A DNA stretch of 64,000 nucleotides, taken from the NCBI GenBank assembly GCA_037442105.1, contig JBBIQV010000012.1, positions 1 through 64,000 of the forward strand. Reading direction: 5' to 3'. Under the pieces are notes generated by a model, which was not told the DNA's origin, searched no databases, and saw only the letters and a program-made list of their open reading frames with translations. Numbering within the stretch: the first letter of the stretch is position 1; each line of letters starts with the position of its first letter. The stretch comes from Nitrospiraceae bacterium (GTDB taxonomy: Bacteria; Nitrospirota; Nitrospiria; Nitrospirales; Nitrospiraceae). Below, in pieces: positions 31,652-53,116 of this stretch. The position numbers were made by a program, and so were the translations under genes.

Positions 31652-31999
31652 GGGGGCGACCGGTATCGACGGGGATACTGAGGCCATCGGGGCATGTCGA
31701 GCTCCTGGGGACTCGTAAAACCTCCGGGAAAACAGCAACTGCCAATCAAGAACTGGCACTCGCGGCTTAAGCCGTGACGTCTCTCCGCCTGAGGCCCGCG
31801 GGGGTGGAAGAGGCGCGATGCAGCGGGCTGGTCCAAGGCTGGTGCTCAGCGGCTGAGGACGAGAACTTCCTGGGCTAGCGGCTGTTCTAAGCCAGCCGAT
31901 GGGCGTGGATGGCTGCGAAACCAAAACGATCGGCTACACATGTAGATGCGGTGAGCTGACGATCTTCGGACAGGGGTTCAACTCCCCTCGCCTCCACCA
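31652..31999 (+). ncRNA. ssrA: transfer-messenger RNA (tmRNA); tag ANQELALAA at 31741-31770
   Basis: 5' GGGGGCGA..GGTATCGAC; 3' GACAGGGGTTCAACTCCCCTCGCCTCCACCA; internal ORF GCC AAT CAA GAA CTG GCA CTC GCG GCT TAA. Confidence 0.97.
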
Positions 32000-47574: not shown

Positions 47575-49803
47575 ATGAGACTCTCGCTCCGCTTCGTCTT
47601 GCCCCTTGTGCTGGTTCTCGCCGGCATTGCGTACGCCGTCATCCCACTGGTCGATACGTTGACCTTGAAGTGGTTTGTGCGCGATCTGGACATGCGATCC
47701 AAGCTGATTGCCAGGACGATGGAAACTCCCTTGGCCGAGCTGGTGGCCTCGGAGTCAAAAGCCAAGGTGCTTAAGTATCTGCACCGGATCATCCAGGATG
47801 AGCGGTTGTACGCGCTGGGGTTCTGTGATCCGGCCGGTCATCTGCTCTATAAGACCGAGACTTGGCCGGCGGAGATCTCGTGCGAAAAGGTCGCCATAGT
47901 CCGACCGGATTCATCAACCGTGTTGAAGGTGAGTCGCGGTCCCCTGCACGTGGCGTCGGCGTCGATTGACGCGGAGGGGCGCACCATAGGCCGCCTGCTG
48001 CTCGTGCACGACATGAGTTTCGTGCAGCAACGCAGCAGCGACACCAAGTGGTATCTCTTCTACCTGTTCGTGGCGCTGAGCGTGGTGATCTCGCTCGTGA
48101 CCGTCCTCGTGGCCCACCTCAGTTGGCGAGGCTGGGTGGCGGGGGTCCGGGCCATGCTGAAGGGTGAAGGCCTGCTGACGCCGATCGCACCGGCGCACAG
48201 ACCGGAGTTGCAGCCTGTCGCGCAGGACCTCCGCGCCTTGGTCCGTGATCTGGAAGCCGATCGCCGCATGCGGGACGAAAGCCGGATCAGTTGGACGCCT
48301 ACTGCGCTTCGCGCCATCCTCCACGACCAACTGGCCGGAGATGAAGTCTTGATCGTCGCGAATCGGCAGCCCTACATACATAACCGGCGTGGGCAGCAGA
48401 TCGACATTCAACTGCCGGCGAGCGGGGTCGTCGTCGCGCTGGAACCGATCATGCGGGCCTGTTCCGGGGTCTGGATTGCGCACGGGAGCGGGTCCGCGGA
48501 TCGCGACGTGGTGGACGCGCACGACCACATCCGTGTGCCGCTGGAGAATCCGACCTACGAGCTTCGGCGGGTCTGGATGAATCCGGAGGAAGAAGCCGGG
48601 TACTACTACGGGTTCGCCAATGAAGGGCTGTGGCCGCTGTGCCACCTGGCCCATATCCGGCCTGCGTTCCGCTCCTCTGATTGGAAACACTATGTCACGA
48701 TCAACGAACGGTTCGCCGCCGCCGTTCACCAAGAAGCGAAGACGAAAGACCCCGTCATTCTGGTGCAGGATTACCACTTCGGCTTGCTGCCGAAGATGAT
48801 TCGAGAGCGGTTGCCGAACGCCACGATCATCACCTTTTGGCATATTCCTTGGCCCAACGCGGAGCGCTACAGCATCTGTCCCTGGCGTGTAGAAATTCTC
48901 GAAGGCCTCCTGGGCAGCAACATCCTCGGATTCCACACCCGCGCCCATTGCAACAACTTCCTCGACAGCGTGGACCGGCTCCTCGAAGCCCGCATCGATC
49001 GCGGAGATTCGACGATCTCCTACGGCGGCAAATTGACGGCCGTGAACGCCTATCCGATCTCCATCGAATGGCCCCCACGGTGGGTGCGGGAGCAACGGCC
49101 TGTGGCCGAGTGCCGCGTGCGTATCAGAGCGAAGTATGGACTGCCTCCCGATCTTCTCGTGGGCATCGGCGTCGAGCGACTCGACTACACCAAAGGGGTG
49201 ATCGAACGGTTCCTCGCCGTGGAACGGCTCTTGGAGCTCGAGCCGCAATGGATCGGCAAGTTCTCCTTCGTTCAATTGGCCGCTCCCAGCCGAACGAAAA
49301 TCGAGCAGTATCACCGCTTCCATGATGAGGTGAGCGCGCTTGCCGATCAGATCAACAAACGATTCGGACGGGATGGGTATCAGCCAATCCACTTGGAGAT
49401 TCGGCACCATGAGCCTCCGGACGTGTTCGAGCACTACCGCGCGGCCGATCTGTGCGTGGTCAGCAGCCTCCATGACGGCATGAATCTGGTCGCCAAAGAA
49501 TTTGTCGCCGCGCGCGACGACGAGCAAGGCGTACTCATCCTCAGTCAATTCACCGGCGCTTCGCGGGAACTGACCGAGGCAGTGATTGTGAATCCCTACG
49601 ACATCGACGAGTGTGCTGCGGCGATCTTTCTGGGGCTCACGATGCCGTCGGCCGAACAGCGCGCCCGCATGCGCAGCATGAGGGGCCTGATCCAGGAGTT
49701 CAACGTCTACCGCTGGGCCGGGAGGATGCTGATGGATGCCGCCCGAATTCGCCAGCGCCAGCGGGTGATGCAGCAGGTGGGCCAACCGAATCTGCTCCTG
49801 TAA
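47575..49803 (+). CDS. otsA: trehalose-6-phosphate synthase with N-terminal TM-periplasmic-TM domain
   Basis: ANRQP, YYYGFANEGLWPLCH, QDYH, FWHIPWP, ERLDYTKG, DGMNLVAKE. Confidence 0.92.
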   Translation: MRLSLRFVLPLVLVLAGIAYAVIPLVDTLTLKWFVRDLDMRSKLIARTMETPLAELVASESKAKVLKYLHRIIQDERLYALGFCDPAGHLLYKTETWPAEISCEKVAIVRPDSSTVLKVSRGPLHVASASIDAEGRTIGRLLLVHDMSFVQQRSSDTKWYLFYLFVALSVVISLVTVLVAHLSWRGWVAGVRAMLKGEGLLTPIAPAHRPELQPVAQDLRALVRDLEADRRMRDESRISWTPTALRAILHDQLAGDEVLIVANRQPYIHNRRGQQIDIQLPASGVVVALEPIMRACSGVWIAHGSGSADRDVVDAHDHIRVPLENPTYELRRVWMNPEEEAGYYYGFANEGLWPLCHLAHIRPAFRSSDWKHYVTINERFAAAVHQEAKTKDPVILVQDYHFGLLPKMIRERLPNATIITFWHIPWPNAERYSICPWRVEILEGLLGSNILGFHTRAHCNNFLDSVDRLLEARIDRGDSTISYGGKLTAVNAYPISIEWPPRWVREQRPVAECRVRIRAKYGLPPDLLVGIGVERLDYTKGVIERFLAVERLLELEPQWIGKFSFVQLAAPSRTKIEQYHRFHDEVSALADQINKRFGRDGYQPIHLEIRHHEPPDVFEHYRAADLCVVSSLHDGMNLVAKEFVAARDDEQGVLILSQFTGASRELTEAVIVNPYDIDECAAAIFLGLTMPSAEQRARMRSMRGLIQEFNVYRWAGRMLMDAARIRQRQRVMQQVGQPNLLL

Positions 49804-49815
49804 GCGAGCGGGACG

Positions 49816-50604
49816 ATGCAGTATCTCTTCACGGAAGCCGGCAAGCGACGGTTGAGCGAATTGGCTCGCCCGTCCACCCTCTTCGCGTTCGACTTCGACG
49901 GCACCCTCTCGCAGATCGTGCGGCAACACCAGGAGGCGCAGCTCGCTCCGCTGATTCGGACTCAGCTCGTGGAACTGGGAAAGGTCGCGCCGACGGCGAT
50001 TCTCTCCGGCCGCTCGCTCGCCGATCTGCAGGCACGCGTGGACGGAGCGGCGGCGCACCTGGTCGGCAATCATGGGCTGGAAGGCCTTGGCGCCTCATCC
50101 GAGGCGTTGCAACGGGCTCGCGACACCTGCCTGGCATGGATGCACCAAGTGGAGGCGCGATGCATGCCCTTGTTCACGCAGATCGGGGTGACGGTCGAGG
50201 ACAAGACCTACTCCCTGGCGATCCATTACCGCACGGCCCGGTGGAAGCCTGCCGCCAAGCATGCCATCAGGCAGTTGTTACCGCTGCTCTCCCCTGCGCC
50301 GCGCGTGCTGCCGGGAAAATCGGTGTGGAATCTCCTCCCGCCTGACGCGCCGCACAAGGGCACGGCGCTGCTCGCTCTCATGACTCGGCTGGGCTGCAGG
50401 GCGGCCCTGTACATCGGCGATGACGACACGGATGAAGATGTCTTCGCGCTGCCTGACAAACGTATTGTGACAGTCCGGATCGGACTAAAGAGAGACTCCG
50501 CAGCCCAGTTCTTACTCCACCGACGTTCCGAGATCACCACATTGCTTCAGTACTTGACGAACGTCTGCGATCAGAAAGATTGGAAAGACACGAGAGCGGG
50601 CTGA
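49816..50604 (+). CDS. otsB: trehalose-6-phosphate phosphatase
   Basis: FDFDGTL, SGR, GNHGLE, HKG, IGDDDTDED. Confidence 0.92.
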   Translation: MQYLFTEAGKRRLSELARPSTLFAFDFDGTLSQIVRQHQEAQLAPLIRTQLVELGKVAPTAILSGRSLADLQARVDGAAAHLVGNHGLEGLGASSEALQRARDTCLAWMHQVEARCMPLFTQIGVTVEDKTYSLAIHYRTARWKPAAKHAIRQLLPLLSPAPRVLPGKSVWNLLPPDAPHKGTALLALMTRLGCRAALYIGDDDTDEDVFALPDKRIVTVRIGLKRDSAAQFLLHRRSEITTLLQYLTNVCDQKDWKDTRAG

Positions 50605-50709
50605 GGTGGTTCCGGAAGATCTTTGGACAGGGTTCGACTCCGGACGCCTCCTTCGCCTGGTGACGAACTGCAACGTCGGACAGGCTTCTGGAAGCCAACT
50701 CCCTCCCCA

Positions 50710-50738
50710 TTGACACGTTTTTCTAATGGGCGTAAGAA
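50710..50738 (+). promoter_or_regulatory. sigma70-type promoter of RNA unit A
   Basis: TTGACA-N17-TAAGAA. Confidence 0.7.
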
Positions 50739-50744
50739 GAATGT

Positions 50745-51170
50745 GCGGCCCAACAATTATCGAGTTGCAGGGGGACCGGACAGGCCGCGCGGCTGTCAGC
50801 TAGATCCCCTGGGATACTTGAAAAGGGAGGAGGGTAGCGATGGACGACCTGACTCCACCTGGCTTAAACGGCCCGCCGACTCGATGGCGGGTTTCTGCTC
50901 GGTCGTGCTAGCCGATTCTCCACTGGCTGTGTCCTAACGGCACCATAGACCACCTGGTTATCAGCCTGAGCACGTAGCGGAGAATCAGACGCTGGCGCGA
51001 GGAACACAAGCGCCTGGGACGAGTTTTTCCCCCGACCGGAATCCACGCTGTTCGTCATCGCGCGGGTCTTTTTGTTGGGCCGAGAAAAATGAACAGACCT
51101 TTCGGCGTCCTAAGCGCCACCCGCGGGCGGCCTCCCTCCACAGTCTAGACAGGCCGCCCGTGCAGTTTCT
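50745..51170 (+). ncRNA. putative structured RNA, copy A (family not recognised); contains a 23-codon sORF at 50840-50911
   Basis: Homologous to 51260-51690 with compensatory changes in stems; G-U pairs imply the + strand; terminal hairpin 51122-51162. Confidence 0.7.
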
Positions 51171-51224
51171 GCTTCGAGGTCCGAAAATAAGTGATGTTCT
51201 TCTCTGACGAGCCGTGCTCCCATG

Positions 51225-51253
51225 TTGACACCTTTTTTGAAGAGGAGTAAAAA
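51225..51253 (+). promoter_or_regulatory. sigma70-type promoter of RNA unit B
   Basis: TTGACA-N17-TAAAAA at the same relative position as in unit A. Confidence 0.7.
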
Positions 51254-51259
51254 GAAGTA

Positions 51260-51690
51260 TAAGGCTCGTTGCCTTACAGTACACGATGTTGGGGATCAAG
51301 CAGAGCGCGCCTGCAGAATGAAAGTGTGATCCCCGGACAACCTCCAACCAGGGAGGAGGTGGGTAATGGAAGACCTTAGTCCACCGGACTGGAACGGCCC
51401 GCCGAGTCAGAGGCGGGCTTCTCGTCGGTCATGCTAGCCGGTTCTCCACTGGCTGCGCCTCTCGGCGCAAAAGACCAACCGGATAGAAGCCTGATTGCGT
51501 GACGGGGAACTGGACGCTGGCGTGAGGAACACAAGCGCCTGGGGTGATTTTTCCCCCCGACCAGAAGCGTGATCCTTTCTTCCTCGCACGGGTCAGCGGT
51601 GAACCTCACAATACAATAAAAAATCTTGGCGCCCTAAGCGCCATCCACGGGCGGCCTCCCTCCTAGTCGATGGGCCGCCCGTGCTGTTTC
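51260..51690 (+). ncRNA. putative structured RNA, copy B; contains a 23-codon sORF at 51366-51437
   Basis: Diverged direct repeat of copy A with the same stems and invariant blocks; terminal hairpin 51646-51683. Confidence 0.7.
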
Positions 51691-51835
51691 AGAGCCAAGG
51701 GGTGCCGTTCTGCCGTGGTTGTCCGCGCGCGTAGTGGTGGCGAGTTCGTACAAACACCCCTTGCGGTTCAAGATCGATGCGGCATAAGATGGAATGCCAC
51801 TTTGCCCGCTGGCTTGCAGCACGGAGGGAGTGATT

Positions 51836-53116
51836 GTGTTCTGGGAAACGCGGCAACCGTCGAATACGCCCAACCGATCCTGTTCGTTTTGCGGAAAACG
51901 CCAAGGCGTGGTCCGTAACCTGATCCAGAGCCCCACGCCTTACAAGTGCGATTCCTGCCGGAGCGGATCCACGCTGCTGATCTGCGAGGAGTGCATTCAG
52001 CGCTGTTCCACTTTCGTGGATAAGGAACAAAACGGGGCGAAGGGCTCGTCCTGCTCCAAGCCGTTGGTGGTTCCCAAGCCGGCGGAGATCAAAGCGACGC
52101 TCGATGACTACGTGATCGGGCAGGATCGCGCCAAGAAAGTCCTCTCGGTTGCAGTGCACAACCACTATAAACGGATTTTGAACCGTGACCGGCTCACCCA
52201 CGTCGATCTGCAGAAGGGTAATATCATGATGATTGGGTCGACGGGGACCGGCAAGACGCTCCTGTCCCAGACCCTGGCGAAGATTCTCCACGTCCCTTTC
52301 GCCATCGCCGATGCCACCACCCTGACGGAGGCCGGCTACGTGGGAGAGGACGTCGAGAACGTGGTGCTCAAGCTCCTGCAGAACTGTGACTACGACGTGA
52401 AGCGGGCCGAAACGGGAATCATTTACATCGATGAGATCGACAAGATCAGCCGGAAGTCCGAGAGCGCCTCGCTGACGCGAGATGTGTCTGGCGAAGGTGT
52501 TCAGCAGGCGCTGCTGAAACTGGTGGAGGGGACCATCTGCAACGTGCCGCCGAAGGGCGGACGCAAACATCCGGAGCAGGACTACATCCGCGTGGATACT
52601 ACGAACATCTTATTTATCTGCGGCGGGGCCTTCGTGGGACTGGACCAGATCATCGCTCAGCGTACGACGTACAAGCGAGTAGGATTCGATGCGAGCGACC
52701 CGACGACTGAGATTGACGGCCACACCGACGCGCTCAGCCGCCTGCGCTCTGAGGACTTGCTGAAGTTCGGACTCATTCCGGAGTTTGTGGGCCGATTTCC
52801 CGTTCTGACGACCCTGTCAGACCTGGACGTTCCCGCCCTAATCCGCATCCTGACGGAACCCCGCCATGCGCTGGTCAAGCAGTATGAGGCGCTCTTCGAG
52901 CTCGAGGGGGTCCGGCTTCAGTTTACCGACGCGGCAGTGAAAGCCGTCGCGCGTCGTGCTGCATTGATGAAAACCGGCGCGCGGGCGCTCCGCACGATCC
53001 TGGAAGATGTCATGCTGGATCTCATGTACGATGTACCGACGATGGGCGGTGTGAAATCCGTGGTCATCACGGAAGAGGTCATCGCCGGGATCGGGCAGCC
53101 GCAGATCATCAACTAA
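51836..53116 (+). CDS. clpX: ATP-dependent Clp protease ATP-binding subunit ClpX, stand-alone copy
   Basis: CSFCGK...ICEEC zinc domain, [41 protein letters not shown] loop; start codon uncertain (51830 or 51836). Confidence 0.95.

Follow-up and report, generated by a model that had tools for sequence, protein, structure and literature searches.

A tandem pair of covarying RNA elements with a conserved mini-reading frame in the Nitrospiraceae, and a possible switch gated by translation

What kind of gene occupies the gap between otsB and clpX in a Nitrospiraceae bacterium, where two diverged direct copies of one sequence follow each other? The window analyzed here is the whole stretch of 64,000 nucleotides from contig JBBIQV010000012.1 (assembly GCA_037442105.1). 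In it, a trehalose-phosphatase gene (49816-50604) and a ClpX-like ATPase gene (51794-53116), both recognized by Pfam, flank copy A (50710-51175) and copy B (51225-51692) of the element, both on the + strand. A first-pass annotation, made from the letters alone, had proposed a duplicated multi-junction noncoding RNA. Its main part stands, in that the element is duplicated, covarying and structured; "noncoding" does not simply hold, given a Shine-Dalgarno (SD) sequence, a start codon and an eight-codon core. We propose, with moderate confidence, that the copies belong to a Nitrospiraceae-specific family of free-standing, ~430-nt predicted RNA genes, and that the RNA would act as a switch gated by translational pausing.

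Two predicted transcription units and the family they belong to

The copies show 82% column identity over a 517-column pairwise alignment, and four direct-repeat blocks with 77-94% identity are spaced 521-526 nt from start to start. The diverged tandem repeats of the first-pass annotation are thereby borne out, and the invariant blocks that it listed are all visible in the pairwise alignment. Each copy opens with a promoter-like site, which in copy A (50710-50738) comprises TTGACA at 50710-50715, a 17-nt spacer and TAAGAA at 50733-50738, and in copy B (51225-51253) TTGACA at 51225-51230, a spacer of the same length and TAAAAA at 51248-51253. Each ends in a GC-rich hairpin followed by a T-rich tail. 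Each copy consequently looks like its own predicted promoter-to-terminator unit. The predicted transcripts, with ends taken solely from the promoter and terminator positions, would span ~426 nt in copy A (50747-51172, beginning at the 5′ GGCCCA and including the terminator U-tract) and ~431 nt in copy B (51262-51692, from the homolog and pairwise alignments). TTGACA is retained in 82 of 85 copies of the element, and the first two positions of the -10 hexamer are TA in 77 of 83. At position 6 of this hexamer A or G stands instead of T, and a conserved GG[C/A]G block precedes it (50716-50738 and 51231-51253; 85 copies). An unusual -10 preference or an alternative sigma factor could lie behind the odd -10; there is some resemblance to the CGTA motifs of the extracytoplasmic-function (ECF) type.

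The fold was derived from these 85 unique full-length copies, of which 79 were kept below 95% identity and aligned. An RNAalifold structure was curated to 99 pairs and evaluated on the same sequences from which it came. Because a lax covariation listing was too noisy and a G-test with average product correction was dominated by clade and paralog signal, the named structures were scored by pair counts. Standard pairs occupy 89.0% of cells, relative to 83.2% in column shuffles (none of 500 reached the observed value) and 43-49% with the 3′ partners slid 1-3 columns out of register. Both sides have changed at 73 of the 99 pairs (47.3 +/- 3.4 in shuffles), and the covariation score is 0.275, compared with 0.181 for shuffled and ~0.09 for slid pairs. 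In addition, the single-sequence folds of both copies are moderately more stable than shuffles, with minimum free energies (MFEs) of -177.2 kcal/mol (z -2.22) in copy A and -179.9 kcal/mol (z -3.09) in copy B. These results support a multi-junction fold through covariation, as the first-pass annotation had anticipated for homologs, and the pairing is conserved across the family.

The helices that had been named beforehand (P1, P4b, P6 and P8) are all recovered and supported in the 79 homologs. The 5′ hairpin P1/P1a (50770-50810; GGGGGA..GACAGGCC-GCGC-GGCTGTC..TCCCCT) has both sides changed at six of six pairs in P1 (GGGGGA..TCCCC) and five of seven in P1a, and one of its pairs is GC in 39 sequences and AU in 28. 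The central multi-junction domain P4-P10 (50889-51045) comprises helices 8-15, which are 81.6-93.5% paired except for the single-pair helix 12 (76.0%). Within it, both sides have changed at 11 of 14 pairs of P4b (GGGTTTCTGCTCGG/CCGACCGGAATCC), six of seven of P6 (GATTCTCC/GGAGAATC) and four of five of P8 (GTGTC..GGCAC). The same domain holds a conserved unpaired block, GAGGAACACAAG (50999-51010); a local GGCGC/GCGCC hairpin around it was rejected, as it is 54-90% paired and the competing P5 is supported. Downstream follow P11 (GGCG-TCCTAAG-CGCC, 51104-51118; helix 16), nearly invariant and 100% paired, where covariation is uninformative because almost nothing varies, and the terminator-like hairpin P12 (51122-51172; helices 17-18). 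P12 has the stem CGCGGGCGGCCT/AGGCCGCCCGTG, the C-rich loop CCTCCCTCC and a T-rich tail; it is 97% paired, both sides have changed at eight of 12 pairs, and the 12 nt after the stem contain 3-10 T residues. The repeat blocks and the covariation fold place the corresponding elements of copy B at 51628-51642 (P11, GGCGCCCTAAGCGCC) and 51646-51683 (the terminator-like hairpin, which with its T-rich tail reaches 51692). That the + strand is the functional one, as first suggested, agrees with abundant G-U pairs (e.g., 68 GU at one pair of helix P3b, described below), with the orientation of promoter and terminator, and with the SD sequence and ATG.

No Rfam family accounts for this element. At gathering thresholds, Rfam 15 covariance models match neither copy, in line with the original claim, and the sole match in the window is a canonical transfer-messenger RNA (tmRNA) gene at 31652-31999 (+; RF00023, 181.8 bits, a full-length model match). 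When Rfam was searched by E-value over 50550-51850, seven matches appeared, all far below gathering, the best being mir-663 at 25.4 of 75 bits. ARAGORN reports no tRNA- or tmRNA-like element in 50600-51800; a tmRNA- or tRNA-like identity was rejected on this result and on the location of the genome's tmRNA elsewhere in the window. None of the five mechanical open reading frames (ORFs) overlapping the region has a Pfam match, and the copies share no long reading frame, again as the first-pass annotation had it.

The element appears to be a conserved gene family, found only in Nitrospiraceae among the genomes sampled. The source genome has it at these two places only. By BLASTN, relatives are present in 17 of the 36 same-family genomes searched; the 24 genomes from three sister families in the same order gave none. 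The exact P11 pattern occurs at no fewer than 121 loci in species-representative genomes, and of the 80 matches listed by title, only four carry a label other than Nitrospira, Nitrospiraceae, Nitrospirales or Nitrospirota. On a profile search the element turned up at all these loci save L091, L098 and L123, the first two being among the four records with another label. The covariance model R1, built on a 108-position 5′ module, matches 116 of 151 family genomes (113 of 148 without G006, G076 and G099, which are flagged as unpublished). Restricted to high-quality genomes the count is 96 of 114, and 26 of 39 genera are represented. Applied to a sample drawn from the phylum with a cut-off of E<=0.001, R1 finds 16 of 18 family genomes and none of the 132 that belong to 21 other families; one match of 24.9 bits (E 0.0086) fell short of this cut-off. 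The 116 positive genomes gave one (49 genomes), two (51) or three (16) R1 matches, which are not copy numbers. In some cases the second match is distant from the first (1562159 and 3820706 in G002:C1, 988722 and 3162962 in G064:C1, 3541529 and 1172643 in G165:C1); since copies are megabases apart in some complete genomes, the family is not always a tandem pair. A metagenome scan with the P11 pattern gave 120 loci on contigs all of at least 1053 nt and enlarged the set to 144 unique copies; none of the 120 is a transcript-sized record able to mark the RNA ends.

Where the copies do stand in tandem, they differ in a fixed manner. All 11 tandem pairs follow one pattern, with CCU-GGC (Pro-Gly) and a distal GGGCCG in the upstream copy. 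In its downstream partner GGGCCG is absent and codon 7 is CCG, for the most part with GAC or GAU (Asp) behind it. One large clade also unites the upstream copies. The duplication is therefore probably old and its order kept, and the two copies are best described as predicted ancient paralogs, type A upstream and type B downstream.

The mini-ORF and the pairings that overlap it

The first-pass description was incomplete in one respect, as it overlooked a conserved SD-ATG mini-ORF in both copies. In copy A, the SD sequence GGGAGGAGGG (50825-50834) precedes the predicted ORF MDDLTPPGLNGPPTRWRVSARSC (50840-50911), which runs from ATG 50840 to the stop TAG at 50909-50911. In copy B, GGGAGGAGG (51351-51359) precedes MEDLSPPDWNGPPSQRRASRRSC (51366-51437), from ATG 51366 to TAG 51435-51437. 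Both SD sequences are strong and lie 5-6 nt 5′ of the ATG, and in 83 of 85 copies the distance from the end of the SD core to the start codon is 7-12 nt. Each is faced by an upstream anti-SD. That of copy A, ACTT at 50816-50819, pairs with GAGG 50827-50830 of the SD (50816-50834 overall) in helix 3, 85.6% paired with two of four pairs changed on both sides; that of copy B is ACCTCC at 51340-51345. The start codon is ATG in 78 of 79 sequences and GTG in one.

The constraint is concentrated in the first eight codons (50840-50863 in copy A, with Pro-Pro-Gly at 50855-50863), which read M-[D/E]-[D/E]-x-[T/S]-P-P-[G/D]. Over codons 2-8 of the 79 sequences, mean column entropy is 0.38, 0.52 and 1.09 at codon positions 1, 2 and 3; from codon 11 onward it is 0.63, 0.84 and 0.69, without periodicity. 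Codon 3 reads GAN in 77 of 79 and uses every third base, so that D or E is kept, and third-position variation in codons 2, 3, 5, 6 and 7 preserves D/E, T/S, P and P. A [TS]PP[GDV] anchor is present in 85 of 85 copies and, in the enlarged set, in 140 of 144 (start, three codons, then [T/S]-P-P-[G/D/V]). Residues 5-8 of these 140 are TPPG in 97, TPPD in 24, SPPD in 14, SPPG in three and TPPV in two; of the four exceptions, the three that were read are two cases of T-P-P-stop and one N-P-P-D. Collectively, these patterns suggest that codons 1-8 alone behave like coding sequence and that the remainder is constrained as RNA.

The length of the ORF is far less constant, at 8 codons in eight copies, 14 in 27, 16 in five, 19-21 in four, 23 in 95 and 40 in one (140 copies). 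In a type B subgroup the stop falls at codon 9, right after Pro-Pro-Asp (L052:2655-3093, L063:2654-3084, L084:1943-2375 and L100:2646-3074), and in two metagenomic copies (L176, L238) at codon 8, right after Pro-Pro. Since stops fall directly behind PP or PPD, the minimal ORF has seven to eight codons and ends at what would be a pause motif. The predicted peptides are acidic, proline-rich and arginine-rich, with no hydrophobic stretch. The rest of the source genome holds no further instance of the mini-ORF beyond the two copies.

The stretch that follows this core is also the point at which the RNA appears to have a choice of partners. The strand S1 of copy A (GGCCCGCCGAC, or GGCCCGCCGA as RNA; 50870-50880, ORF codons 11-14, with the core GGCCCGCC in codons 11-13) can form a local hairpin with S2 (GGCGGGT; 50871-50877 with 50886-50892) or the long-range helix P3b with S3 (ATCGCGCGGGTC, or AUCGCGCGGGUC, core CGCGGGUC; 51057-51068), ~190 nt downstream. 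The equivalents in copy B are S1 GGCCCGCCGAG (51396-51406), S2 GGCGGGC (51412-51418) and S3 CTCGCACGGGTC (51583-51594). S1:S2 is 93.1% paired (slid controls 41-48%) with five of seven pairs changed on both sides, in 19 cells relative to 4.4 +/- 1.8 in shuffles (0 of 500); S1:S3 (helix 5) is 94.0% paired with seven of 11 pairs changed on both sides. Three-way compensations, seen in the 79 sequences as well, link all three strands in the 144 copies, S1-S2-S3 being A-U-U in 12 copies at one position and U-A-A in four, three and one copies at three other positions. From the ATG through S2 there is no gap in 78 of 78 sequences, such that the spacing between start codon and hairpin is invariant. S1 is accordingly supported as having two mutually exclusive partners, each backed by covariation, and the single fold assumed at the outset gives way to two competing pairings of the same strand.

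A second, less firm competition involves the distal UGGGCCG (TGGGCCG at 51076-51082, after S3). Its partner is either UGGCC of codons 7-9 (50860-50864), giving P3a (helix 4; 86.9% paired, both sides changed at four of five pairs), or GGCCCA at the 5′ end (50747-50752), giving a 5′-3′ clamp (82.8% paired, 23 cells relative to 8.8 +/- 2.5). Both pairings are moderately supported. Energetically, the two copies differ. The MFE structure of copy A has the long-range form and the 5′-3′ clamp, and that of copy B has the local S1:S2 hairpin; in constrained folds the long-range form is worth -6.8 kcal/mol relative to the local one in copy A and +7.0, in favour of the local form, in copy B. Across the set, 50 of 55 type A and 16 of 24 type B copies prefer the long-range form (medians -6.1 and -2.6 kcal/mol). 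For the strands of the P12 terminator, no alternative partner was found among the 70 top-scoring covarying column pairs.

The proposed switch and its rivals

How might these parts work together? Each unit would begin with a TTGACA promoter and a 5′ hairpin; behind these would come a strong SD, which the upstream anti-SD partly masks, and a mini-ORF with an eight-codon core. Pro-Pro motifs are classical pause sites that depend on EF-P, and PPG and PPD are strong stallers. The N-terminal acidic/proline cluster together with Pro-Pro-Gly/Asp would thus form a putative site of ribosome pausing or drop-off, lying on or immediately before two strands, each of them with a choice between two incompatible partners. 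A ribosome holding Pro7 in its P site would cover codons 7-9, and its leading edge, which we take to lie ~+11 to +13 nt ahead, would be at the base of S1 (50870/50871). Because the leading edge would reach this base, ribosome occupancy or pausing on the mini-ORF is proposed to select which pairing forms. The chosen pairing would open or close a long-range clamp around the multi-junction core and the 3′ domain, which bears the invariant UCCUAAG loop and the C-rich terminator loop. Such a switch would report translation capacity, for example EF-P activity, the supply of Pro-, Gly- and Asp-tRNA, Mg2+, or ABC-F/energy state. Its candidate outputs are the stability of the RNA itself, via the 5′-3′ clamp, and trans-action of the 3′ domain, whose two loops are candidate base-pairing seeds only. 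Pausing and its coupling to the pairings are reasoned by analogy. In E. coli, N-terminal clusters of D, E and P pause or abort translation, and MgtL (MEPDPT..) thereby switches its mRNA conformation (10.1101/2021.02.02.429294; PMC11282234; PMC12856214). A more specific version is offered tentatively, at clearly less than even confidence: an orphan attenuator, that is, a free-standing trans-acting or self-regulating RNA whose conformation is set by pausing or drop-off on the eight-codon acidic/Pro-Pro ORF as a read-out of translation capacity, with the PPG and PPD paralogs tuned to different thresholds.

Several observations weigh against the pausing-gated switch or the units on which it would depend. 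The -10 element is noncanonical, with T at position 6 in just three of 83 copies. A simple consensus scan of the + strand of the region called neither promoter nor terminator, although the TTGACA-N17-TAA(G/A)AA starts of the first-pass annotation can be read in both copies; the scan is silent because a final T is missing from the -10 and the terminator loop exceeds the permitted 8 nt. The shuffle control of the pair counts leaves shared ancestry in. CCACC, the Pro-Pro codons, can pair with GGUGG beside the SD and may be kept as RNA; as the 3′ strand of this start-codon hairpin never varies, covariation cannot speak to it. In 66 of 79 copies the long-range form is the thermodynamically preferred one, and the two pairings of S1 could represent a co-transcriptional folding intermediate and the final fold, with no regulation involved. 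Type B copies often have a same-strand gene downstream, which fits a cis-acting leader. Finally, in an E. coli reporter, threonine before PPP is a context of weak pausing (PMC8129111).

Some of these points converge on a purely noncoding structured RNA, serving in protein binding or as a scaffold, in which the SD-like, AUG-like and CCACC sequences are structural and the S1 pairings are intermediate and final fold. We consider this unlikely, though it is the rival we take most seriously. It draws on the strongly supported fold, the GGUGG/CCACC complementarity, the preference for the long-range form, and the absence of a coding signal from codon 11 onward, where in-frame stops occur at many positions. 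It leaves unexplained an invariant start codon at near-constant SD spacing, third positions that vary in just the way that keeps D/E, T/S, P and P (in codons 2-3 they alone vary, even though these codons lie in a loop), and Pro-Pro in 143 of 144 copies (140 by the anchor, three from the exceptions read), including those with stops right after PP or PPD. At the opposite end, the transcript could be the mRNA of a functional small protein of ~23 amino acids with a long structured 3′ untranslated region, or a dual-function small RNA (sRNA) with an active peptide. A strong SD with its ATG, a length of 23 codons in 95 of 140 copies, and a codon-24 stop that appears as TAG, TAA or TGA would suit it. 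The remaining 45 have another ORF length (8 to 21 codons in 44, 40 in one), two more copies have seven codons, and codons 11-23 show no periodicity and coincide with helices, which leaves eight constrained residues and makes this reading quite improbable. The toxin mRNA suggested in the first-pass annotation fails on similar grounds, as the peptide is not hydrophobic, which excludes a type I toxin, and is cut to 7-16 residues in many copies.

The architecture of leader peptide, alternative helices and terminator also invites a cis-acting leader or attenuator, in which pausing would control read-through of P12 and the A-B pair would be a double attenuator before the ClpX-like gene. Genomic context bears directly on this idea. 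The neighbours in the window recur at five of 118 loci from other genomes and are absent at 113, and no neighbour gene is generally conserved. With neighbours identified as protein clusters (Pfam on one representative each), the commonest one upstream is a same-strand PPK2 gene (41 of 125 loci), and the commonest downstream are convergent, an amino-acid permease (51 of 125) and GDPD (20 of 125), with no common downstream gene. The prevalence of convergent genes argues against a general cis-acting leader, and hence against the riboswitch-like sensor of the first-pass annotation, if this is taken generally to act on a downstream gene. The promoter conserved in each copy, the 97% pairing of P12 and the lack of an alternative partner for its strands point the same way, so that we judge this explanation improbable, less so for type B, which may have a cis role. 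Same-strand genes behind type B copies encode ClpX-like proteins (L001, L003, L009), MscS-type channels (L012, L014, L036) and CBS-domain proteins (L028, L049).

Two further explanations can be given little weight. A CsrB/RsmY-like sponge would titrate CsrA through several GGA motifs, and GGA stretches do occur in the SD, in GGAGAAUC and in GAGGAAC. The 5′ part of copy B (51291-51422, +) has a sub-threshold RsmY match of 19.1 bits (E 0.045), judged to be due to chance and far below the gathering score of 57; the source genome encodes one CsrA. Presence of the RNA does not follow CsrA, and the sponge was rejected on this count. Among the 36 nearest family genomes (a tally that includes the unpublished-flagged G006), 23 have the RNA and 15 have CsrA. 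CsrA gave no match in 13 of the 23 with the RNA (six of these 13 being 99% complete), and the RNA is missing from five genomes with CsrA. A sponge is in our estimate very improbable. Decayed duplicates of a protein gene, which the first-pass annotation had itself named as a way to be wrong, or a mobile repeat would be in keeping with a tandem duplication in an intergenic gap. This last explanation is refuted, and its probability practically negligible, by the absence of Pfam matches in all five ORFs, covariation that keeps pairing and not frame, two places in the genome, presence in 26 of 39 genera, and paralog order fixed in 11 of 11 pairs.

A few features of the surroundings may be added. 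The ClpX-like ATPase, which carries a ClpX zinc finger (51794-53116, +), begins ~100 nt past the copy B terminator. Upstream, the trehalose-6-phosphate synthase homolog (47575-49803, +; 742 aa) has its GT20 domain in residues 257-722 only, and its ~250 N-terminal residues have no Pfam match. Across loci, the neighbours, above all those downstream of type B, recur on an osmotic or ionic theme, with the mechanosensitive channel, the CBS-domain protein, trehalose synthesis (otsA/otsB, 47575-50604) and the amino-acid permease; given the small sample, this theme may be coincidence.

Significance and comparison with known systems

Nitrospira are the main nitrite oxidizers and the only known complete ammonia oxidizers in soils, waters and treatment plants. 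The element is among the best-conserved noncoding loci of Nitrospira and has no Rfam family. Literature searches at the level of titles and abstracts turned up no description of a regulatory RNA in Nitrospira. Should the orphan-attenuator reading be correct, Nitrospira could sense translation capacity directly, be it through EF-P, tRNA charging, Mg2+ or energy state. Even if the proposed mechanism is wrong, the large covarying fold, the clear alternative pairing and the defined mini-ORF make a ready experimental target.

Among characterized systems, dual-function sRNAs (RNAIII/hld, SgrS/SgrT, SR1/SR1P, AzuCR and VcdRP) are alike in joining a small ORF and a structured RNA in an independent transcript with its own promoter and terminator, as is predicted here. 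RNAIII, for example, is ~500 nt long, encodes a 26-aa peptide and presents C-rich loops against SD sequences. In this class, the subject of two reviews (PMC12310071, PMC12612679), the peptide is a functional product, whereas the Nitrospira RNA has eight constrained codons in an ORF that is often truncated, and there is no homology. CsrB/RsmY RNAs share the multiple GGA motifs and the weak RsmY score, but they are built of repeated GGA hairpins, in contrast to the complex multi-junction fold and CsrA-independent presence of the Nitrospira RNA.

The closest parallels are found in leader peptides. As in hisL and trpL, a short leader, here of predicted translation, overlaps the first strand of mutually exclusive helices, and an intrinsic terminator, likewise predicted here, follows (PMC8129111 for the principle). 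The Nitrospira RNA differs in that the terminator showed no competing pairing, the loci share no operon downstream, no single-amino-acid codon runs occur beyond Pro-Pro, and two paralogs have their own predicted promoters. Of the features of an attenuator, exclusive helices with one strand in the ORF are present, and a helix-dependent terminator and a general same-strand downstream gene were not found. The resemblance to MgtL extends to the peptide itself, with a very short ORF that opens with an acidic/proline cluster (MEPDPT.. in MgtL; M-D-D-x-T-P-P-G/D here) and continues into a basic tail. In MgtL, the choice of RNA helices depends on ribosome pausing or drop-off over the first ~six residues (10.1101/2021.02.02.429294, PMC11282234, PMC12856214). 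MgtL is a cis-acting 5′ leader of Salmonella and E. coli, with Rho-dependent termination before mgtA, whereas the Nitrospira RNA has a predicted terminator of its own, usually no same-strand gene behind it and a much larger structured part (~300 nt), and the two have no sequence or Rfam relationship. If the proposed switch is real, leader-peptide sensing, which is known only from cis-acting mRNA leaders such as these, would here be built into a stand-alone RNA gene.

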